DNA of 7,547 bases from a virus (lineage: Duplodnaviria > Heunggongvirae > Uroviricota > Caudoviricetes), in IMG/VR virus record IMGVR_UViG_2585427710_000007, positions 1 to 7,547 of that record; one strand, written 5' to 3'. Shown piece by piece: positions 226-7,436 of the stretch (within the stretch, counting starts at the first letter, position 1; every line of letters starts with the position of its first letter). The position numbers were made by a program, and so were the translations under genes. Below the pieces are notes generated by a model. The model was not told the DNA's origin and ran no database searches. It saw only the letters and a list, made by a program, of their open reading frames with translations.

Positions 226-2628
226 TTAAAAATCAGCCTGACTCGGGATCAGTTTTTGCCAGATAGCTGAAACGTATTTTGCCTGGTAACGCGCATCGTG
301 CAGGGCATTATGGCGCTCACCCTCAAATGTGATGACACTTCGAGCATCGAAATCCATCACCAGTCCCATAGCAACCATCGTTCTTACATCGCGATCATTG
401 GTGTAACGCCATGGGCAGGGGATCCCCTGCCGTTCATATGAACGGCGTAAAATTACGTTGTCAAAGTTGGCTCCATTTCCCCAGACCTGAACAAAAAATT
501 CACCGGAGTTTTCGTCGATAAATTCCCGTAATTGCAACAGTGCGTCATCCAACGGGATTTCATCGGTCAGAATGGCTGATTGTGCTTCCCGTGACTGTTT
601 CAGCCACCACTTAATGGTGTCCCGATCGATGACTCCGCCCGCGGTTTCCAGATCGATAGTTTTGCTGAATTCTGGCCCCATCTCTCCGGTTGCCGGATCA
701 AAAAACTTACCGGCCAGAGCGTTTATTGGCGCATCAGGATTTTTGCCCATTGTTTCAAGGTCAATCATCAGATGGTGCCACAACCTGCTGGTGGATGTGC
801 TTTCGTGATGACCGTTCACCTTAATTAAGGGATTTGCTGTCTCGCCTGTTTCATTATTGCCATTGGCATGTTGATCGCCTTCGGTGCACTCCTTGTTCGG
901 GTATACGGCACTCTCCATTTCCTCTGGATCTTTCTCCCGGGCTTCATCCTGGCTTTCTTCGTTGAATGTTTCCTGGTATGTTGCGTCGCCCATTACCGCG
1001 CCACAGTCAGGACAGTTGCCGTCGCCGGTCTGACCGCAGGCGGTGCAGACTTTTTCCGGTTCTTGTTGCTCTTCTGGTTCAGGCTGTTTCGTTTCCGGCT
1101 CGTTTTGTTCCGATTCGTGCTGGTTCTGGTTCACAGAATCGCGGGTTTCAATCCCCTTCACCCATTTCGGATCATTCGGGTCGCTAATCCCTTCAACAAA
1201 TTCTCCGTGAGAAGCAGCCAGTAATTTATCTGCATCGACAGGATTTTTGGGGGGAATGTTTTTCCTGGCTTCATGGAGTTCTGCACGCAGTTTCTGATAT
1301 TTCGCATCAACAGAATTTATCTGTGGCTGAGCATCCATCGACTGCGTGTCCTGATTATGTTCAGTTGTATCCGGTTCCACTGCTTCAGTCGTTGCCTGTT
1401 CATCTGCCATTGCGCCAGTTGGCTGCGGTTTTTCTTCATCATCCTGTTTTCCTTCTTTTGTTACACGCTGCGGCATTGGAGCAGAGGAGCGACCGCAGGC
1501 AATATCCACGATTTCTGGATCAGGGTTGGCATGGTCGGTTTCGGTCAGTACTTTGTTCAGATATTCGGTAACACGGTGGGGAGTAGCCTCGATACCAATT
1601 GGTGCTTCTTTCACGGACGCAACCACTATCGCGCGGGAATAATCCAGGTGACCAGGCATGGCGATGAATTTGTCACGAAAAACAGAAAAGGGCGGCTTAT
1701 TCTCTGAAACGATTTCTTCAATGCGTTTGGCGTGTGCCGGATGTGGATTGTAAATATCGATGTCCATTGAACGGGCCAGAACGCCAGCGGCAACGTCACG
1801 TTCCACTGACGCATCATCGTGGACAAAACCTTCACCGCGATCGGTAAGAATTCCTCCGCCAGCATTAGCGCCGGATGGCGTGCGGCTGATGCGTAAAACA
1901 CGATTTCCTTTCATCCACTCTTTTGTCAGCAGACCTCGATCGGTATAGTCAGCGTCCAGGTATGCTTCGAAAAAAGCAGTCATTAACCCCAGATTGGAAT
2001 TAACGGGATTAGGGAAAACTTTGTCTGTGTCGCGTACCAGTTTGTGAAGGTCGCGAATCTCCAGCGGGTCGAGCAGCTTTGTGTTGTGGGAAATAGCCAG
2101 GGCAGTAACAGCAGGCAGTTCTTCAGCTCGTGCGATATGTAATGCCTGAAGTTCTTCCCGTGAAACGTGCGTTACCGGTTTTTCGCTGCCATGTTGCGCA
2201 AGCCAGCGAATGGGCAGTTCCTGACCGGAAATCGGCAGGAGCATATTATCCTCAATCTCAGCCATGTCTTCGCCATTGACGTTGGTATTGTCAGTGCTGG
2301 CAGGTTTGTCCTGAACTGAGGGGGAAGGCGCTATAAATATCATTGTGATGCCATCTTCTCCGCCTTTTTCATAGCGGTTGCAGAATTCGGTATCAAACAC
2401 ACCTTCAGGCGGCAGGTCATTAACAATAGGCAAATTCACGCGAACAGGTTTTTTGAAATCCTCTTCGTCAAATCCAGCATCGTCCATTGCGACAACACCC
2501 CGTGATATTGCAACCGATAATTTTTTTGCTGTGCGCCAGTAAAAACCGCCTTTAATCCCAAGGCGTTTTCTGACTTTGTCATTTTTGGCTTCGTAATACA
2601 GTGCAATTTCTTCTTTATCAGTGCTCAT
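226..2628 (-). CDS. RecE-like (exodeoxyribonuclease VIII-like) protein, 800 aa, with a C-terminal DnaQ-like DEDDh 3'-5' exonuclease domain
   Basis: Track ORF with GAGG 7 nt upstream of the ATG at 2628. N-terminal and central regions resemble my recollection of Rac RecE (for example [27 protein letters not shown]). There is an acidic low-complexity linker and a C-x2-C-x7-C-x2-C zinc-ribbon-like motif ([16 protein letters not shown]). The C-terminus carries Exo I (MIDLETMG), Exo II ([10 protein letters not shown]) and Exo III ([13 protein letters not shown]) motifs. Confidence 0.85.
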
Positions 2629-2720: not shown

Positions 2721-2909
2721 TTATCCAGCCGGTATTTCGTTATTCAGGTACAGCGATACTTTTTTTAACGGGAGACATTCGCCAGAAATTTTTTGCTCGT
2801 CTCTTGCACGGAGGCATGATTCTTTACTGGCATAAATTCCGGTAATCACTTTCTGTGGCTCACCTGTTATCAGAAAAACCGTCATCATCAGTGTAAACGC
2901 TGAACTCAC
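2721..2909 (-). CDS. ydfD: YdfD-like small protein with a hydrophobic N-terminus (lysis-type peptide)
   Basis: GTG start at 2909 with GGAGG 6 nt upstream; GTGA start/stop overlap with dicB. The N-terminus SSAFTLMMTVFLITG is hydrophobic. Sits immediately downstream of dicB, as ydfD does in Qin. Family assignment is from memory and synteny. Confidence 0.6.
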   Translation of the reverse strand: MSSAFTLMMTVFLITGEPQKVITGIYASKESCLRARDEQKISGECLPLKKVSLYLNNEIPAG

Positions 2910-3094
2910 TGCTGCCCTCCGAAAATGCCAAGTTCAAGAAGGGCAATTCTGGAGAGTATGGAATTATCATTGAGAAGATAAGGCTCATATTTTCTCATCC
3001 TGATGGCGTCCTCAGTAAACTCCCGGTTACTGAGCAGAATACCAATATTAAAACACCCTTCAGACGTATTAACGTTTGGTAGTGACGTTTCCAT
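2906..3094 (-). CDS. dicB: Cell division inhibitor DicB homolog (62 aa)
   Basis: ATG at 3094 with GAGGA about 7 nt upstream. The product METSLPNVNTSEGCFNIGILLSNREFTEDAIRMRKYEP... matches my recollection of the DicB N-terminal half (LPNVNTSEGCF, FTEDAI). It lies about 175 nt downstream of a DicF-like element, as in Qin. Confidence 0.8.
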   Translation of the reverse strand: METSLPNVNTSEGCFNIGILLSNREFTEDAIRMRKYEPYLLNDNSILSRIALLELGIFGGQQ

Positions 3095-3271
3095 TATCGC
3101 GTCCTCAACAATGAATTTTGTGATGTGGTGCCTGGTGCCTCCAGGTGACGTTAACCAGTTAACAATTAACGCCGGATTGTTAGTTGATGTCTGTTACGCC
3201 AGTAAAAGACCGCTTGTTTTAACTGTTCCGCGTGCGCTTAGCCGCATTCACCGCATCACAAAATACACTTT

Positions 3272-3311
3272 AAAAATGGCGGATATCCATTTCCGCCGAA
3301 TCACCAGAAAA
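3272..3311 (-). ncRNA. dicF: DicF-like small RNA candidate (shortened variant) ending in an intrinsic terminator
   Basis: Minus-strand sequence UUUUCUGGUGAUUCG-GGCGGA-aauggaua-UCCGCC-AUUUUU. The 5' motif UUUCUGGUGA matches the start of K-12 DicF as I recall it. A 6-bp GC stem (3292-3297 / 3278-3283) with an 8-nt loop is followed by a U-run (3272-3277). Position upstream of dicB matches Qin. The 5' end is not defined. Confidence 0.5.
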
Positions 3312-3652
3312 GTGATAACAGAGGTTGTTGTGGCGGTGTTGTCACTCAGGCGTATGGTCAACCTGACAACCCGGTGCATTTTCTGGAGTAATGGAGGAAG
3401 CCCCAGCCATACTTACCGCCGCGCCATTTCGCGGATTGCCACAACCGGAAGCGCACGATCGAATTAAATTTAACGACGACCTGTACAGAGAGACTAACTT
3501 CGCCGTGCGCTTTCGTGTTATGCCCTGACTTTTCAGGGATATGTTCTTTCAGTAAACTGTCAGTGCCGGATTCTTATCCGTGTCCGGCGCACGACCACAC
3601 GTGACAGCGTGTTGGTCTCCATTTTTAACCCAGAACCTCTATGGAGGATAAA

Positions 3653-3955
3653 ATGCACTCTAAATCAAATCGATATTATGTTCATGTGCAGTTATTTGAA
3701 GCAACAATGGAACAGGAGAAAAAGTTCGAGACTCTGATGCCAAATTTTAAATACTCCAGGATGATTAATGAAGGTGACGTTGAATATAAATTGTTGCCAG
3801 GGGCATACGTTATTCAGTCAACGCTCAATTCGAATCAAATACTTGAACAAACCTTTTCTGTTGCTAATTCAGTTGGTGTTAATGCTCACATTTTTGTTTG
3901 CCCTTATGATGAAAGTGCAACCCTTTTGCCTTGTGCTGATTTTGGCACTTACTAA
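3653..3955 (+). CDS. Hypothetical 100-aa protein; AT-rich moron in reverse orientation within the leftward operon
   Basis: GGAGG at 3643-3647, 5 nt before the ATG at 3653 (the track start at 3641 is less likely). The ORF is visibly AT-rich compared with the flanking sequence. No transmembrane segment or recognisable motif. Product MHSKSNRYYVHVQLFEATMEQEKKFETLMPNFKYSRMINEGDVEYKLLPGAYVIQ... Confidence 0.6.
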   Translation: MHSKSNRYYVHVQLFEATMEQEKKFETLMPNFKYSRMINEGDVEYKLLPGAYVIQSTLNSNQILEQTFSVANSVGVNAHIFVCPYDESATLLPCADFGTY

Positions 3956-4259
3956 CTAAATTTAATTTATGTTCAAGTTCGGCTATTTGCATACGTAGTG
4001 CTTTAACCATTGTTTCATGATAAATCTCACTCACTCCACCTGGGTGTGGGGTGAATTTAGGTGAATAATCTTTGTTTTCAGAACTCAGCTTCTCTTCGTA
4101 CAGCTTGATAAAGGCATTACGCACATTATGGGATATATTGTCGATGGTTTCTTTTTCTACGGTACTCAGGTCAAGAGTCGCCAGTTGAGAACGAACTATA
4201 TTCGCTGCCATTTCCTGGAATGGTACTGGTAAATCTTTAAATTCCATCGTCAACCTCAT
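3879..4259 (-). CDS. Hypothetical 126-aa protein at the ydfB/ydfC position of a dicB-type operon
   Basis: The ATG at 4259..4257 overlaps the ydfA-like stop (ATGA), suggesting translational coupling. An alternative ATG at 4247 has GAGG 6-8 nt upstream. The last 25 codons or so are read antisense to the 3' end of the plus-strand gene 3653-3955, giving a His/Lys-rich tail. Confidence 0.6.
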   Translation of the reverse strand: MRLTMEFKDLPVPFQEMAANIVRSQLATLDLSTVEKETIDNISHNVRNAFIKLYEEKLSSENKDYSPKFTPHPGGVSEIYHETMVKALRMQIAELEHKLNLVSKCQNQHKAKGLHFHHKGKQKCEH

Positions 4260-4411
4260 CAGTCAGTGTTTCTGGCTAACCAGCGACGCGCGCCAGCTTC
4301 AGTTTTAAACGTTTTGCTTCTGGTATACGTCATCGCGGTAAACGTGCCGTCCAGGTTGGAGAATACTCCGCATACCAGAGATTCGTTGTTGCCAAGATTG
4401 AGCGTATCCAT
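4259..4411 (-). CDS. ydfA: YdfA/YdaF-like small protein (DUF1391-type), 50 aa
   Basis: ATG at 4411 with GAGG about 6 nt upstream. Product MDTLNLGNNESLVCGVFSNLDGTFTAMTYTRSKTFKTEAGARRWLARNTD matches my recollection of Qin YdfA. First gene of the leftward operon. Below the ORF-track length cutoff. Confidence 0.65.
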   Translation of the reverse strand: MDTLNLGNNESLVCGVFSNLDGTFTAMTYTRSKTFKTEAGARRWLARNTD

Positions 4412-4640
4412 GTTGACCTCATTTACCCTTAACGCCGGGTCGCGGAACTAAAAACCTGCTGCGCTGTTATACAAAGTGTTCCCGCCGTCATGTTCATACG
4501 CCTCGGGCTGGCTACTTAACCCCTGACCACTGCCGGGTAACTCGAAGTATTGCCCTGCGTTCTGTTGAATGGGGTGGGTTGGTGAAACAAGGATGCACTT
4601 TTAAAGTTATTATGTCAACACTTATAAAGTTAGGTTGTGG

Positions 4641-4669
4641 GCAACAAAAACCGCCTCGAGATGAGACGG
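4641..4669 (-). terminator. Rho-independent terminator of the paaR2-paaA2-parE2-like operon
   Basis: On the minus-strand RNA, a 7-bp GC-rich stem (4663-4669 paired with 4651-4657, one G-U pair) with a 5-nt loop, followed by UUUUUGUUG (4641-4650), starting 12 nt after the parE stop. Confidence 0.6.
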
Positions 4670-4682
4670 CCCTGTGAAAGGG

Positions 4683-4970
4683 TTAGTTCTGCTTGGGGAA
4701 TTGGCGTCTGGCGTGTACTACACTCACGATCTCAATGCTTAAAGTGGCTACACGGTAAAGAATTATATAGTTAGGGTGAGCTACAATCTCACGCAAGCCA
4801 GGTACTCTGTCGCTTGGTGGGTATAAATACGGGTGTTCGGATAACGGCAGCACACACCCCCTTAATCGCTGCCATAAGCGTTCTGCCGCATCTATGTCGA
4901 AACGAGCAATATAACTAGTTATATCATCTAGGTCGGTATCTGCGCTTTCAAGCCATAACACGGGTAACAT
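4683..4970 (-). CDS. parE2: ParE-family toxin (ParE2-like) of a three-component TA system
   Basis: 95-aa ORF, MLPVLWLESADTDLDDITSYIARFDIDAAERLWQRL...HARRQFP, typical of the RelE/ParE fold and matching my recollection of E. coli O157 ParE2. Starts 3 nt after the paaA2 stop. Paralog 1 versus 2 cannot be settled by eye. Confidence 0.85.
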   Translation of the reverse strand: MLPVLWLESADTDLDDITSYIARFDIDAAERLWQRLRGCVLPLSEHPYLYPPSDRVPGLREIVAHPNYIILYRVATLSIEIVSVVHARRQFPKQN

Positions 4971-4973
4971 TTA

Positions 4974-5162
4974 CTACTTACTCCGTTCCTTGCGCATTTT
5001 AGCAAAGCGTTCTGCCATTCTGCGCTCAACCTCGTCATGGGGAATTGCTGGGCGCGGATTTGCAAGGCTCGCTGCTACTTTCGCACGCAGCCATTCGTTG
5101 TAACTGTTTTCTTGTTCAATGGTTTCGAACTCAGAAACCATTGGTGAAAGGGCCGTATTCAT
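4974..5162 (-). CDS. paaA2: PaaA2-like antitoxin (62 aa)
   Basis: Internal ATG at 5162 with GGAGG 6 nt upstream. Product MNTALSPMVSEFETIEQENSYNEWLRAKVAASLANPRPAIPHDEVERRMAERFAKMRKERSK, close to what I recall of PaaA2. The 83-aa track ORF from 5225 is rejected as an overextension into paaR. Confidence 0.85.
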   Translation of the reverse strand: MNTALSPMVSEFETIEQENSYNEWLRAKVAASLANPRPAIPHDEVERRMAERFAKMRKERSK

Positions 5163-5191
5163 GGCACACCTCCGTCTGTGTATGGTGGTCA

Positions 5192-5599
5192 TTATGCTCG
5201 ATGCCCTTTCCGGGCAGCGAGCCATCTTTCAATTGTGCGCTCCATTAACTCTTTTTTGTCTTTCATCTCCTGAAGCATTTGTCCCTGTTCTTCCTCTGGG
5301 AATGCACCAAATGTCTGAAGTAGCTCTCTTTGCTTCGGACCTATTTTCATTGTGTCAGGTACCACAATCTGTTCGTCCTCACTTGGTGGCAACATAAACC
5401 AATATGGAGGGAATCCTGTTACTTCAGAAAGTTTATCAAGATTAGCCATTGATGGGCTTGTGATGCCATGAACCCACTTTTGGACCGATTGTTGGGCAAC
5501 ACCTATTCTGCGGGCTAGTTCTGCTTGCTTAAGCCCTGTTTTTTCCAGCACCAGTTTTATCCGGTACGTGGTTATTTCAAGAGTGGTCATTCGCTTCAT
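5192..5599 (-). CDS. paaR2: PaaR2-like HTH (XRE/CI-like) transcriptional regulator, in the cI position
   Basis: 135-aa ORF with a helix-turn-helix region (LKQAELARRIGVAQQSVQKWVHG). Divergent from the Cro-like gene and first gene of the TA operon. The ATG at 5599 has no clear SD, so it may be leaderless; Met4 is an alternative start. Confidence 0.8.
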   Translation of the reverse strand: MKRMTTLEITTYRIKLVLEKTGLKQAELARRIGVAQQSVQKWVHGITSPSMANLDKLSEVTGFPPYWFMLPPSEDEQIVVPDTMKIGPKQRELLQTFGAFPEEEQGQMLQEMKDKKELMERTIERWLAARKGHRA

Positions 5600-5706
5600 G
5601 CATTCATTTTACACAAAAAAAGTGTAGCCAGCACAATCAGCTTGAAAGTGTTGATAGTGTAACTTTTAGAGTGTATAAGTGGTGTCGATTGATTGGAGTT
5701 AGCGAT
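5600..5706. promoter_or_regulatory. Divergent promoter/operator region of the immunity switch
   Basis: Rightward sigma70 candidate: -35 TTGATA (5651-5656), 17-bp spacer, -10 TATAAG (5674-5679). Leftward candidate -10 TAAAAT (rev-comp of 5606-5611), which would start transcription at or next to the paaR ATG. Palindrome TACAC-N7-GTGTA at 5610-5626 and repeated AGTGT motifs at 5647, 5656 and 5670. Confidence 0.5.
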
Positions 5707-5985
5707 ATGCATAAATGTTTAAAAAATAAAATTCGCCAAATAGGGTTATCCCAAGCGGGTGTTGCTCGCTTGATTGGGTTGCCACAGCAGGTTGTATGTC
5801 GATGGGTTAATGGGCAACAGGTCCCTGCATCAAGGGTTTTACAACTATGTGAGATTATGGCGTGGACTGTCACCCCCCACGAGCTCCGACCAGATATTTA
5901 CCCTAACCCAACCGATGGCCTGCCTTGTGGACGTAAGAGTACAGCGAATGAATTACTGGCGGTGAACAATGAAAATCACACCTGA
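5707..5985 (+). CDS. ydaS: Cro-like HTH protein of the YdaS family
   Basis: ATG at 5707 with GGAG 8 nt upstream (5695-5698); the track GTG start at 5671 is less likely. HTH region IGLSQAGVARLIGLPQQVVCRWVNG. Divergent from the repressor and overlaps the ydaT-like start by 17 nt. Confidence 0.7.
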   Translation: MHKCLKNKIRQIGLSQAGVARLIGLPQQVVCRWVNGQQVPASRVLQLCEIMAWTVTPHELRPDIYPNPTDGLPCGRKSTANELLAVNNENHT

Positions 5986-6490
5986 ACAGGTTTGCGAGGC
6001 TCTGGATGCCTGGGTATGCAGACCAGGAATGACGCAGGAGCAGGCGACGATATTAATTACTGAAGCCTTCTGGGCTCTACAGGAACGCCCGAACATCGAT
6101 GTTCAGCGTGTCACGCTTGATGATGGCGGGGTTGATCAGCGTGCGCTTGGCGTTAACCGGGTGAAGATATTCGAACGCTGGAAGGCTATCGACACCAGGG
6201 ATAAGCGTGAAAAATTCACGGCGCTGATTCCGGCAATTATGGAGGCTATCCGGATTAGTGATTTCAGGTTGTACCGCGAAATTACTGACGGAAAAAGCAT
6301 TACGTACATGATTGCCGGGTTAAACAAAGAATATGGAGATGTGGTGGAGTCCGGGCTGCTTTTTGCAGATCCAGCTGTTGTGGAACGTGAGACAGACGAG
6401 CTTATAGAAAAAGCAATCGCTTTCAAGCGTGCCTATCGTCACCAGTACCAACAAAAAGCCGGATGGAATTATGAGCCTTCTTTTTGCTGA
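5969..6490 (+). CDS. ydaT: YdaT-family protein (functional CII analogue in Rac-type prophages), 173 aa
   Basis: Position immediately after the Cro-like gene with overlapping start. The motif REKFTALIPAIMEA resembles my recollection of Rac YdaT. Confidence 0.65.
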   Translation: MKITPEQVCEALDAWVCRPGMTQEQATILITEAFWALQERPNIDVQRVTLDDGGVDQRALGVNRVKIFERWKAIDTRDKREKFTALIPAIMEAIRISDFRLYREITDGKSITYMIAGLNKEYGDVVESGLLFADPAVVERETDELIEKAIAFKRAYRHQYQQKAGWNYEPSFC

Positions 6491-7436
6491 ACGCCCGCTG
6501 GTTATAAACACACAGCTGGCGATGAAGATTGGTTTAAACGAAGCCATTGTGTTGCAGCAACTGCATTACTGGTTGAGGGATACCAGTTCCGGCATGGAAT
6601 GTGATGGCGTTCGCTGGATTTACAACACAACGGAACAATGGCTGGAACAGTTTCCGTTCTGGTCAGAGTCAACGTTAAAGCGTGCGTTTGCAAGTCTGAA
6701 AGCGCTGGGGCTTTTGCGTAGCGAAAAGCTCAATAAATCGAAGCGTGATATGACTAATTTTTACACAATTAACTACGATAGCGCGCTTTTAGATGATGGC
6801 AAAGTGAACGAATCCATCGGGTCAAAATGCGCCACTCCATCAGGTCAAAATGACACGATGGAAGAGGTCAAAATGAAACGTTCCATTGGTTCAAAACGGC
6901 CCAATGTCATCAGGTCAAAATGGCCCGATGATCCTACAGAGAATACAACAGAGAATACAACAGAGAATAAAAAACTCTCTTGTCCGGACGCTTCGCAACC
7001 GGACGAGTTGACGGCTGAACAGGCGTTTTTAACCCGCCATCCTGATGCAGTTGTGTTCAGCGTGAAAAAACGCCAGTGGGGAACCCGGGAGGATTTGACA
7101 TGTGCGCAGTGGATCTGGGGGCGGGTTGTAAACCTGTACGAACAGGCTGCCAGTGACGATGGTGAGATCACGCGACCGAAAGAGCCCAACTGGACGGCGT
7201 GGGCCAATGACGTGCGCACAATGCGGATGCTGGATGGAAGAAGTCACAGACAAATTTGCGAAATGTTCAGCCGGGCACAACGGGATCCGTTCTGGATAAA
7301 AAACATCAAGAGCCCGGAAAAACTCCGTGAGAAATGGGATGAACTGGTTATTCGACTGTGGCGTGGTCCCGCGCAGCGTTGCGTGAATCATATTTCTGAA
7401 CCGGATACCGAAATTCCGCCGGGTTTCAGGGGGTAG
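6471..7436 (+). CDS. Phage replication initiator / replisome organizer (lambda O-like) with an internal origin
   Basis: ATG at 6471 preferred over the track start at 6429, which would overlap ydaT by 62 nt. The N-terminal region (LVINTQLAMKIGLNEAIVLQQLHYWL...) is typical of replisome organizer N-domains. Iterons lie inside the gene. Followed 6 nt later by the next gene. Confidence 0.7.
   Translation: MSLLFAERPLVINTQLAMKIGLNEAIVLQQLHYWLRDTSSGMECDGVRWIYNTTEQWLEQFPFWSESTLKRAFASLKALGLLRSEKLNKSKRDMTNFYTINYDSALLDDGKVNESIGSKCATPSGQNDTMEEVKMKRSIGSKRPNVIRSKWPDDPTENTTENTTENKKLSCPDASQPDELTAEQAFLTRHPDAVVFSVKKRQWGTREDLTCAQWIWGRVVNLYEQAASDDGEITRPKEPNWTAWANDVRTMRMLDGRSHRQICEMFSRAQRDPFWIKNIKSPEKLREKWDELVIRLWRGPAQRCVNHISEPDTEIPPGFRG
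6814..6925. repeat. Candidate replication origin: five iterons with about 23-bp periodicity
   Basis: Core GGTCAAAATG at 6820, 6843, 6866 and 6913, plus a degenerate copy GGTTCAAAACG at 6888. Spacing is 23, 23, 22-23 and 24-25 bp, often preceded by CATCA. This is the arrangement of ori-lambda inside the O gene. Confidence 0.7.
6936..6971. repeat. Three tandem 12-bp repeats (ACAGAGAATACA) immediately after the iterons
   Basis: ACAGAGAATACA at 6936-6947 and 6948-6959, then ACAGAGAATAAA at 6960-6971. They encode TENTTENTTENK within the initiator and form an A-rich stretch next to the iterons. Confidence 0.7.

Follow-up and report, generated by a model that had tools for sequence, protein, structure and literature searches.

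A probable prophage repressor gene followed by a paaA-parE toxin-antitoxin pair in the immunity region of a lambda-like Escherichia coli prophage

The window analysed here, a stretch of 7,547 nucleotides from a virus record of the Caudoviricetes (IMG/VR IMGVR_UViG_2585427710_000007), contains a three-gene operon, regulator-paaA-parE. Sequence comparison confirms that this operon is real and that it belongs to a lambda-like E. coli prophage, where it lies within the immunity region. Taken as a whole, the locus very probably represents the left half of the immunity region in an E. coli prophage of the lambdoid (Rac/Qin/CP-933P-like) kind, with a repressor operon that carries paaA-parE as cargo. 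The three genes are co-oriented on the minus strand, with all coordinates as first stated, and encode in this order a DicA/PaaR-family regulator that we take as the prophage repressor (135 aa, 5192..5599, with ATG 5599 as the probable start), the antitoxin PaaA (62 aa, 4974..5162) and a ParE toxin (95 aa, 4683..4970). The regulator gene is separated from paaA by 29 nt (5163-5191) and paaA from parE by 3 nt (TAA, 4971-4973), the parE ATG lying 3 nt past the paaA stop; the original prediction gave both spacers correctly, but in reverse gene order. A GGAG(G) motif is found 6-10 nt 5' of the start of paaA (GGAGG, 6 nt), of parE (GGAG, 10 nt) and of the divergent cro-like gene. A single terminator lies 3' of the operon. 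The match scores of PaaA, ParE and the regulator against Pfam and PDB place these genes far beyond chance.

The alignment of the three products to PaaR2, PaaA2 and ParE2 of CP-933P, which the original prediction had proposed, is obtained in full only for the last two. PaaA (about 95% identical to its CP-933P counterpart) has Pfam PaaA2 as its sole detected Pfam domain (70 bits, cut-off 27), lacks a DNA-binding domain, and matches the PaaA2 structure 3zbe with an E value of 4e-34 and 58 of 61 residues identical. ParE matches Pfam ParE_toxin (58.8 bits) and ParE2 in 5cw7_B (E 1e-57, about 94% identity over 94 aa), as well as 3kxe and 6x0a weakly. In the regulator, only residues 81-135 align with PaaR2 (residues 69-123; 55 aa, 53% identity), and its N-terminal domain gave no significant alignment with that of PaaR2. 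The name paaR thus fits the C-terminal part of the protein and not its N-terminal half. Indeed, the solved N-terminal domain of PaaR2 (PDB 7nkv) was retrieved by PaaR2 and not by the regulator, which matched Pfam HTH_3 (51 bits) and, in the PDB search, the 434 repressor (E 7.5e-4). [quoted passage not shown] It is 34% identical to K-12 DicA over 109 aa that span both domains, and covers positions 8-131 of the 135 of the NCBIfam DicA profile NF007257; the score of 63.6 bits is below the cut-off of 101, which makes the protein a relative of DicA and not an orthologue. Among the best 40 of the 132 records of a distant DNA search with the regulator, there was no O157:H7 genome; the regulator is therefore probably not closely similar to PaaR1 of CP-933M either.

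The AF2 model of the regulator (pLDDT 82.8) predicts an N-terminal five-helix HTH domain, a disordered linker and a C-terminal helical hairpin of 47 residues. The modelled N-terminal domain resembles those of P22 c2, 434, lambda cI and SinR, and the conserved hairpin probably mediates oligomerisation. Pfam found no Peptidase_S24 match in the regulator, that is, no domain for RecA-stimulated autocleavage. A specific coupling of the C-terminal domain to PaaA-ParE, for instance as a docking site, was considered and rejected as a strict rule because the same domain occurs in loci without the toxin-antitoxin pair and in DicA.

The surroundings of the operon place it within a lambdoid switch. As had been predicted, the operon diverges from a Cro-like gene: 107 bp from ATG 5599 lies the gene for a Cro analogue of the YdaS family (92 aa, 5707..5985, plus strand; Pfam YdaS 41.7 bits, cut-off 30), followed by that for a CII analogue of the YdaT family (173 aa, 5969..6490, plus strand; Pfam YdaT_toxin 26 bits), which also matches phrog_163, "CII-like transcriptional activator", with an E value of 3e-41. 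Further 3' is an O-like gene (phrog_391, E 8e-91) carrying five 23-bp iterons, and the next gene in the closest genome is annotated as an "ATP-binding protein", the product name given to ydaV in K-12 Rac. The operon is thus flanked by a divergent YdaS/YdaT pair with O/P-like replication genes on one side, and by a PL-type promoter with ydfA-...-dicB-exonuclease on the other. Together with the repeated operators between the divergent repressor and cro genes and a second operator set at PL, these are the elements of a lambdoid switch as recognised in silico. The position between the divergent cro/cII-like pair and a PL-type promoter is that of cI-rexA-rexB in lambda, which supports the predicted analogy.

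Three putative 17-bp operators lie within the 107-bp intergenic region, with centre spacings of 23 and 26 bp, and overlap PR and the PRM −10. The OR3-like site TACACTTTTTTTGTGTA (5610..5626) is a perfect 5-N7-5 palindrome within the PRM spacer, the OR2-like site AACACTTTCAAGCTGAT (5636..5652) lies directly next to the PRM −35 and shares 2 bp with the PR −35, and the OR1-like site TACACTCTAAAAGTTAC (5659..5675) is located between the PR −35 and −10. The PR-like promoter (TTGATA, 17 nt, TATAAG; 5651..5679, plus strand) would drive the cro-like and ydaT-like genes. A PL-like region (4590..4633, minus strand) begins 10 nt past the terminator, and its promoter, TTGACA (4618..4613), 17 nt, CATCCT (4595..4590), would drive ydfA-like ... 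dicB ... exonuclease. It contains the putative sites OL1 TGCACTTTTAAAGTTAT (4594-4610) and OL2 AACACTTATAAAGTTAG (4617-4633), the only two exact matches to ACTTTNNAAGTG in the window; the right halves of OR2 and OR3 depart from the form common to OR1 and OL. The two regulatory regions hold 10 of the 16 operator-pattern matches in the window, and the PL and PR blocks are identical at 30 of 45 positions, the best score in the window (the next best being 24). Across related loci (alignment A2), the OL block is specific to the immunity type, changing together with the N-terminal domain of the regulator while its flanks are conserved. The longest words shared by OR and OL also tend to reach their greatest length when both belong to a single immunity type, a weak separation in which some off-diagonal values equal that of the window.

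The intrinsic terminator predicted at the end of the operon is present on the minus strand (4669..4643), 13 nt past the stop, as a hairpin with a 7-bp stem and a 5-nt loop (CCGTCTC-ATCTC-GAGGCGG) followed by the U-tract TTTTTGTT / UUUUUGUU; the hairpin alone folds at −10.0 kcal/mol. A hairpin and T-run occur at the same place in the compared loci L006 and L007 with different stems, and L003, L008 and L002 fold less cleanly. A scan with consensus promoter and terminator models called none of PR, PL, PRM and the terminator, its hit count being that expected by chance; the three promoters have hexamers that fail the scanner rules (TATAAG, CATCCT, weak −35). Since the scan missed them, the terminator and the promoters rest on manual and comparative reading, and we infer PR, PL, PRM and the operators at consensus level. 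The same scan gave a single antisense promoter-like match in cro (5873..5844), at chance level, and no inverted repeat was found at the cro/ydaT junction, where a YdaT operator might lie, so that this did not locate a PRE analogue; the operator pattern published for YdaT is TTGATT-N6-AATCAA. Rfam (the window at the gathering threshold, and positions 3000-4700 at E<=1) yielded no RNA family for either the operon or the PL leader, and no match to DicF in the window; a sub-threshold STnc100-like match was the only Rfam trace. The PL leader was also considered as a structured RNA and rejected as such, the single-sequence fold having a z score of +0.96 and an alignment of seven sequences showing no covariation; it matched neither HK022 nor any annotated feature in phage records.

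The reading frame of the regulator has an ATG at 5599 (MKRMTTLE...), a second in-frame ATG at 5590, and an in-frame stop four codons upstream of 5599. As the original prediction stated, no Shine-Dalgarno (SD) sequence accompanies the start (GGAG, GAGG and AGGA are all absent within 20 nt of either ATG), and a PRM-like −10 hexamer TAAAAT (5611..5606, minus strand) is located 6 nt 5' of ATG 5599; the −35 is weak (GTGCTG, 5634..5629). The same hexamer-6 nt-ATG arrangement is found in paaR2 of CP-933P (GATAAT), which is leaderless according to 5' RACE and N-terminal sequencing (PMC8630535), and in the compared loci L006, L009, L010, L012 and L013/14, with 7 nt in L007. It recurs in seven of the eight operator types compared (from Escherichia, Klebsiella, Morganella and Salmonella) with varying discriminator sequences, so that the geometry appears to be family-wide in DicA/PaaR-type prophage repressors of several enterobacterial genera. 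By analogy with paaR2, whose geometry is identical, we infer that transcription of the regulator gene starts at the A of ATG 5599 and yields a leaderless mRNA, in line with the reading first proposed. Alternatively, translation might begin at ATG 5590 (MTTLE..., 132 aa), with a leader of 9 nt or on a longer mRNA made from a different promoter. This 132-aa form is the PGAP call in the closest genome and that for most database homologues, and the L007 homologue begins at the position of the second methionine. However, ATG 5590 has no SD either, so that a 9-nt leader would be expected to translate poorly, and it is the distance from the −10 to the first ATG that is conserved across genera, the intervening sequence not being so. 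Moreover, gene callers penalise starts without an SD, which accounts for the 132-aa calls. We consider the later start unlikely, and the PGAP start is probably three codons too late.

The most satisfactory reading of the regulator is that of a prophage repressor, on account of the operator-like 17-mers at OR and at the PL copy 1 kb away, and because full-length homologues occupy the cI position in prophages without the toxin-antitoxin pair. Such homologues, divergent from ydaS-ydaT, are found in Klebsiella, Morganella, Salmonella and a phage with an annotated DicA repressor. This evidence favours the earlier proposal that lysogeny repressor and toxin-antitoxin regulator are the same protein. 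It also weighs against the view of the first gene as only a dedicated regulator of the pair, a kind of split antitoxin. Hallez, in 2010, reportedly first described paaR-paaA-parE as a toxin-antitoxin system of three components; many antitoxins have HTH_3 domains, and the regulator has weak MqsA-, HipB- and HigA-type matches. Yet the PL promoter with the duplicated sites drives early-left genes foreign to the pair, the regulator shares homology with the repressor of Qin, DicA, and PaaR2 represses both PR and PL in CP-933P (PMC8630535), all of which makes this view highly improbable. It is just as hard to credit that the locus is a decayed, non-functional remnant. The reference case, CP-933P, is indeed cryptic, but in the window all reading frames are intact and the SD sequences, terminator and operators are preserved; furthermore, a prophage of strain P15-385 matches the entire window at 99.7% and includes integrase, excisionase, replication genes and stx2, and the isolated phage Evi has a paaR2-type version. 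As to the pair itself, toxin-antitoxin systems frequently are defence systems, and the position of paaA-parE and its co-transcription with the repressor are as for lambda rexAB. The pair could thus serve mainly in abortive infection or exclusion of other phages, as a functional analogue of RexAB, rather than as an addiction module. We regard this as doubtful: PADLOC has no defence-system model for PaaA, ParE or two adjoining unknown ORFs, and the sole phenotype demonstrated for the near-identical CP-933P system is ClpAP/ClpXP-dependent post-segregational killing with plasmid stabilisation. Exclusion and addiction are not mutually exclusive, however.

We therefore retain a repressor operon with a toxin-antitoxin cargo, for which the following scenario may be proposed. 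A weak PRM-like promoter would produce a leaderless repressor mRNA beginning at the A of ATG 5599; paaA and parE would be on this mRNA too, with their own ribosome-binding sites, and transcription would stop at the terminator (4669..4643). By analogy with CP-933P, the repressor would bind OR1-OR3 to turn off PR, and with it the cro-like, ydaT-like and replication genes, and OL1-OL2 to turn off PL. Positive autoregulation at low occupancy probably comes from OR2, the site next to the PRM −35. The Cro-like YdaS homologue would compete for the same sites to form a bistable switch, and the YdaT homologue probably plays the part of CII in establishment transcription. In the cargo, PaaA, which has no DNA-binding domain, would be a labile antitoxin that neutralises ParE, itself predicted to be a DNA-damaging, SOS-inducing toxin. 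At the rexAB position, the pair may by analogy act as an addiction module for the immunity region or the prophage, and the allele in the window may likewise mediate post-segregational killing. Because toxin activity in situ was not detected in CP-933P, the biological role assigned to paaA-parE is hypothetical.

The same paaA-parE cassette is found beside at least four different repressor DNA-binding domains, and with each of these come separate operators, Cro and YdaT; the breakpoints coincide exactly with the paaA start or fall within the repressor linker. As the full-length homologues of other genera lack the pair, sequence comparison identifies paaA-parE as an optional cargo that has been inserted at the rex position, with the repressor gene on one side and PL on the other. 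A bolder proposal, which we put forward as a rather improbable one, is that paaA-parE stays fixed as a core while the immunity specificities around it are exchanged and that, with an stx2 prophage in the closest genome, a repressor-linked SOS-inducing toxin could feed into the induction or stability of Shiga-toxin phages. If true, it would lend natural-history support to the published idea that the pair kills recombinants that lose it. The allele is indeed present in Shiga-toxin-producing E. coli, and the combination of a non-cleavable repressor and a linked toxin in an stx2 prophage could be relevant to Stx phage stability. For the rest, our results are mostly confirmatory. The arrangement, which the original prediction rightly traced to an O157 cryptic prophage, is already published for CP-933P (PMC8630535, PMC9986795), so that the finding is one of correct recognition and not of discovery. 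It does indicate that a three-component arrangement with a cI-like regulator is not unique to CP-933P, and that PaaR-PaaA-ParE is a modular design recurring with different immunity specificities. What is new relative to CP-933P is that the repressor gene ahead of the same pair encodes another DNA-binding domain; the leaderless geometry in DicA/PaaR-type repressors, the optional nature of the cargo and the PGAP start are modest additions.

The closest known system is paaR2-paaA2-parE2 of CP-933P (Sp12) in E. coli O157:H7, with the same three-gene order at the same place in an immunity region whose gene map is published (PMC8630535, PMC9986795). There, PaaR2 is the cI analogue, is translated leaderless, competes with the Cro analogue YdaS and is reported to be unresponsive to mitomycin C (Jurenas 2021, PMC8630535). 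Both regions have divergent YdaS/YdaT-family genes, a PL with operator copies downstream and a −10 hexamer 6 nt 5' of the repressor ATG, and their repressors have the C-terminal domain in common, neither possessing a RecA-cleavable S24 domain. The DNA homology, 92.8% over the toxin-antitoxin genes, ends exactly at the paaA start. Beyond it, a classical HTH_3 domain of the 434-P22-DicA type replaces that of PaaR2, the operators are wACACT-N5-AGTTA-like instead of GTTTAGTAA repeats, Cro and YdaT are 25% and 31% identical, and the intergenic region measures 107 bp against 97 bp. Since operators, Cro and YdaT differ along with the regulator, the region is, as judged from these comparisons, a heteroimmune variant; its closest genome carries it in an stx2 prophage, whereas CP-933P is cryptic. 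In Qin of K-12 (dicC <- -> dicA, then ydfABC-dicF-dicB), DicA is homologous to the regulator over both domains, and the repressor gene, at the same position, is likewise followed by a repressor-controlled leftward operon that starts with a DUF1391/YdfA gene and contains dicB, but no toxin-antitoxin pair separates dicA from the ydfA promoter. The likeness to Rac of K-12 (RacR-YdaS-YdaT) is one of synteny, with ydaS, ydaT, O-like and DnaC-like genes on the right and, past the repressor gene, the same conserved segment of the PL leader; the annotation shows no toxin-antitoxin pair beside RacR. Lambda resembles the window in having the repressor and two accessory genes on one leftward transcript with a terminator just before PL, a tripartite OR with 23-26 bp centre spacing, divergent PR and PRM, and OL about 1 kb away, and its repressor mRNA is leaderless, as proposed for the window. 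However, RexAB and the ParE toxin-antitoxin cargo have no sequence homology, the repressor of the window has a small helical C-terminal domain where that of lambda has the S24 autocleavage domain, no more than two OL sites can be recognised, and proteins of the YdaS and YdaT families stand in for Cro and CII. Finally, the two-gene parDE systems of RK2, Caulobacter and Vibrio also have a ParE-fold toxin with a small antitoxin gene upstream. In contrast to the canonical parDE antitoxin, PaaA has no RHH DNA-binding domain, and in the window transcriptional control would be delegated to a separate protein, the repressor of the phage switch.

The operon of the original prediction, a minus-strand run of regulator, antitoxin and ParE-family toxin, was confirmed by its ORFs and their profile matches. 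The HTH regulator (135 aa, 5599..5192; HTH_3, 51 bits) has a second in-frame ATG at 5590, and its frame is closed by a stop four codons before 5599. It is followed on the same strand by paaA, whose 62-aa antitoxin (5162..4974) matches Pfam PaaA2 with 70 bits (cut-off 27) and the crystallised PaaA2 (PDB 3zbe) at 58 of 61 residues (E 4e-34), and by parE, whose 95-aa toxin (4970..4683) matches Pfam ParE_toxin with 58.8 bits and shares about 94% identity with ParE2 (PDB 5cw7_B, E 1e-57). Judged from these sequences, the three products are not those of chance ORFs. GGAGG lies 6 nt upstream of the paaA ATG, and GGAG 10 nt upstream of that of parE. The spacers measure 29 nt (regulator-antitoxin) and 3 nt (antitoxin-toxin); both values had been given correctly, in the opposite order.

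The locus belongs to a lambdoid prophage of the Rac/Qin/CP-933P group, in which it makes up the leftward half of the immunity region. The divergent Cro-like gene was found as expected, as a YdaS-family gene starting at 5707 on the plus strand, 107 bp from the regulator. To its right are a YdaT-family gene (phrog_163, "CII-like transcriptional activator", E 3e-41), an O-like replication gene (6471..7436; phrog_391, E 8e-91) and the start of a further gene, an "ATP-binding protein" in the closest genome, a product name also given to ydaV of K-12 Rac. The O-like gene contains five 23-bp iterons (core GGTCAAAATG) spaced 23-24 bp apart and, after them, three ACAGAGAATACAA repeats with 12-bp spacing (6815-6972); this is presumably the prophage replication origin, located within the initiator gene as it is in lambda. 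Left of the operon lie a DUF1391/YdfA-like gene, unknown ORFs, dicB, a DUF1482 gene and an 800-aa "exonuclease" (226-2628, minus strand). The latter joins an N-terminal Exonuc_VIII segment (RecE N-terminal region) to a C-terminal Rv2179c-like 3'-5' exoribonuclease domain, and the domain search found no RecE nuclease domain in it.

A segment of E. coli P15-385 (NZ_CP075627.1), the closest complete genome, is 99.7% identical to the whole window. It sits between int/xis and stx2AB in a prophage that adjoins potC, with stx2A and stx2B about 8 kb right of the window's right end; a Shiga-toxin prophage in this strain thus carries a repressor of the DicA/PaaR type that has no S24 cleavage domain, together with a linked ParE toxin. 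The toxin-antitoxin pair occurs in 623 of 5426 complete E. coli genomes, and 23 of the 5426 match at least 80% of a 1151-bp query (4600-5750) that takes in the PL region as well as the beginning of cro; three STEC genomes contain this core at 100% identity. The window type is therefore rare compared with the O157 type.

The regulator start had been described as lacking a Shine-Dalgarno (SD) sequence and having a TAAAAT -10 just upstream, and both features are present: GGAG, GAGG and AGGA are absent within 20 nt of either candidate start (5599 or 5590), and the predicted PRM -10 (TAAAAT, 5611..5606, minus strand) is separated by 6 nt from ATG 5599, so that the canonical +1 would be the A of this codon. 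CP-933P has GATAAT, 6 nt and ATG, with a start mapped by experiment. The same hexamer, 6 nt and ATG recur in the compared loci L006, L009 (Klebsiella), L010 (Morganella), L012 and L013/14 (Salmonella), with 7 nt in L007, and the intervening nucleotides vary among loci. That the spacing is kept while the sequence varies is the strongest evidence at hand that the regulator mRNA may be leaderless from 5599. It also suggests that ATG 5599 is the true start (135 aa) and that the PGAP start, used in most database entries as well (ATG 5590, 132 aa), is three codons short. At the other end, the proposed intrinsic terminator was recovered 13 nt past the parE stop as a 7-bp hairpin (CCGUCUC/GAGGCGG) followed by UUUUUGUU (4669..4643, minus strand; fold of -10.0 kcal/mol). 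A consensus scanner did not list it; its function is argued for by L006 and L007, which keep a hairpin and U-run at that position with other stem sequences. Folding there is less clean in L003, L008 and L002.

Repeated sites flank the operon. Five 17-mers share a wACACT-N5-AGTTA-like sequence and are putative operators: OR1 (5659-5675), OR2 (5636-5652) and OR3 (5610-5626, a perfect TACAC-N7-GTGTA palindrome) at PR/PRM, and OL1 (4594-4610) and OL2 (4617-4633) at PL, the only exact matches to ACTTTNNAAGTG in the window. Ten of its 16 two-mismatch matches fall inside these two regulatory regions. Predicted PR (5651-5679, plus strand, TTGATA-17-TATAAG) and predicted PL (4618..4590, minus strand, TTGACA-17-CATCCT) are copies of each other, being identical at 30 of 45 positions, the top match in the window (runner-up, 24). 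Across seven loci, the OL/PL block varies with the regulator N-terminal domain and its flanks are kept; the longest words shared by OR and OL tend to fall within one immunity type, with weak separation and some off-diagonal values equal to the window's own. Because OR2 abuts the weak PRM -35, as it does in lambda, positive autoregulation through OR2 is suggested.

A further 17-mer of this kind, TACACTTTAAAAATGGC (3264-3280, plus strand), has one mismatch to ACTTTNNAAGTG on both strands, and the sequence around it ranks third among the matches to the PR block (24/45). This 17-mer could be an additional repressor site, placed upstream of dicB (3094..2906), or a chance occurrence. Also upstream of dicB, 3062-3279 (minus strand) matches Rfam STnc100 over the full model length, below threshold (33 bits against a gathering score of 47, E 5e-5). 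In Qin this position is occupied by dicF, whereas no Rfam DicF match was obtained here; the interval from dicB to the next ORF carries no PGAP annotation in the closest genome. On the plus strand, an ORF of 100 aa (3653-3955) is preceded by a strong SD (GGAGGA); it is oriented against the early-left operon, and part of it overlaps ORF 4247..3879 at the 3' end of the latter. Its full length matches phrog_8894, of unknown function (E 6e-34); it has no Pfam or PADLOC match or PGAP annotation in the closest genome, and looks like a moron. Finally, the leader that separates PL from the ydfA-like gene (4411..4259), at 4440-4580 on the minus strand, contains about 110-140 nt of non-coding sequence nearly invariant in seven loci of four immunity types, whose flanking genes are only 75-85% identical. 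It is found in 3440 of 5426 complete E. coli genomes (up to six copies per genome), unannotated among the matches listed, just downstream of racR in K-12 Rac and, at 77% identity, in a phage deposited as Actinobacillus phage; it was not found in the Qin dicA-ydfA spacer. It has no Rfam match, unusual fold or covariation; one candidate role is as an early-left leader element that acts in cis.

Is the toxin-antitoxin regulator also the lysogeny repressor, as had been proposed? Full-length homologues in Klebsiella, Morganella and Salmonella, 60-70% identical over both domains, stand at the same switch, divergent from ydaS-ydaT, with no paaA-parE downstream, which supports this proposal. This layout without the pair is also that of a phage record in which a DicA repressor is annotated, and in K-12 Qin dicA is directly followed by the ydfA promoter. 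Such homologues argue that the repressor family exists on its own, with the toxin-antitoxin pair as cargo that was inserted after the repressor gene and before PL; they also rule out that the conserved C-terminal domain is tied specifically to the pair. By analogy with CP-933P, the repressor would bind OR and OL and compete with the Cro-like protein, leading to bistability, and YdaT would drive establishment. PaaA would be degraded by ClpAP/ClpXP, and ParE would cause post-segregational killing and SOS induction. Neither the domain search nor the AF2 model revealed an S24 domain in the repressor, so RecA-stimulated autocleavage is not expected.

The expected alignment to the CP-933P proteins held for PaaA and ParE, whereas the regulator matches PaaR2 at its C-terminus only: BLASTP aligns residues 81-135 with PaaR2 69-123 (53% identity) and gives no alignment between the N-terminal domains. 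On sequence grounds, the regulator is not PaaR2. Its N-terminal domain is a classical Xre/cI HTH (434 repressor, E 7.5e-4) which, in the AF2 model (HTH 6-69, low-confidence linker 70-87, helical hairpin 88-134), superposes on P22 c2 (1.0 A over 60 residues), with further matches to 434, lambda cI and SinR. The NCBIfam DicA profile is matched at positions 8-131 of 135, with 63.6 bits, under the cut-off of 101, and K-12 DicA is 34% identical across both domains. The Cro-like and YdaT-like counterparts in CP-933P are 25% and 31% identical to the window proteins. Mosaicism is apparent in the DNA, since homology to CP-933P extends from 4422 up to the paaA start, at exactly 5163, and homology to L007 stops at 5402, within the regulator linker. 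Eight aligned regulators combine variable N-terminal domains with a single conserved C-terminal domain (LTxxQxELLQxFxAFPExxQ...KKExM...ARW), which argues that the window locus is a heteroimmune family member, with the same toxin-antitoxin cassette and repressor C-terminal domain and another DNA-binding specificity. In L005 (NZ_CP028381.1, 2416-3267), two tandem regulator genes precede paaA-parE, one intact and PaaR2-like, the other HTH_3-type, N-terminally truncated and with its C-terminus frameshifted into paaA; the arrangement resembles a scar left by recombination between two immunity types.

The original prediction of a regulator-antitoxin-toxin operon at the immunity switch, as in an O157 cryptic prophage, is correct and already known, being the arrangement described for paaR2-paaA2-parE2 (Jurenas et al. 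2021, PMC8630535; Prolic-Kalinsek et al.). In CP-933P, PaaR2 is a functional analogue of lambda CI, and its mRNA is leaderless according to 5' RACE, the N-terminal sequence MQKKE and mass spectrometry (PMC8630535). In footprints, PaaR2 and the Cro analogue YdaS occupy overlapping operators, both in the 97-bp intergenic region and at a PL downstream; a PRE-like promoter is activated by YdaT, and the immunity region is bistable and stabilises a mini-F plasmid (PMC8630535). To this the present locus adds a leaderless geometry found across the family, a probable start-codon mis-annotation, the toxin-antitoxin pair as optional cargo and the mosaic breakpoints; what is new here is a heteroimmune, DicA-like version of an experimentally characterised system.
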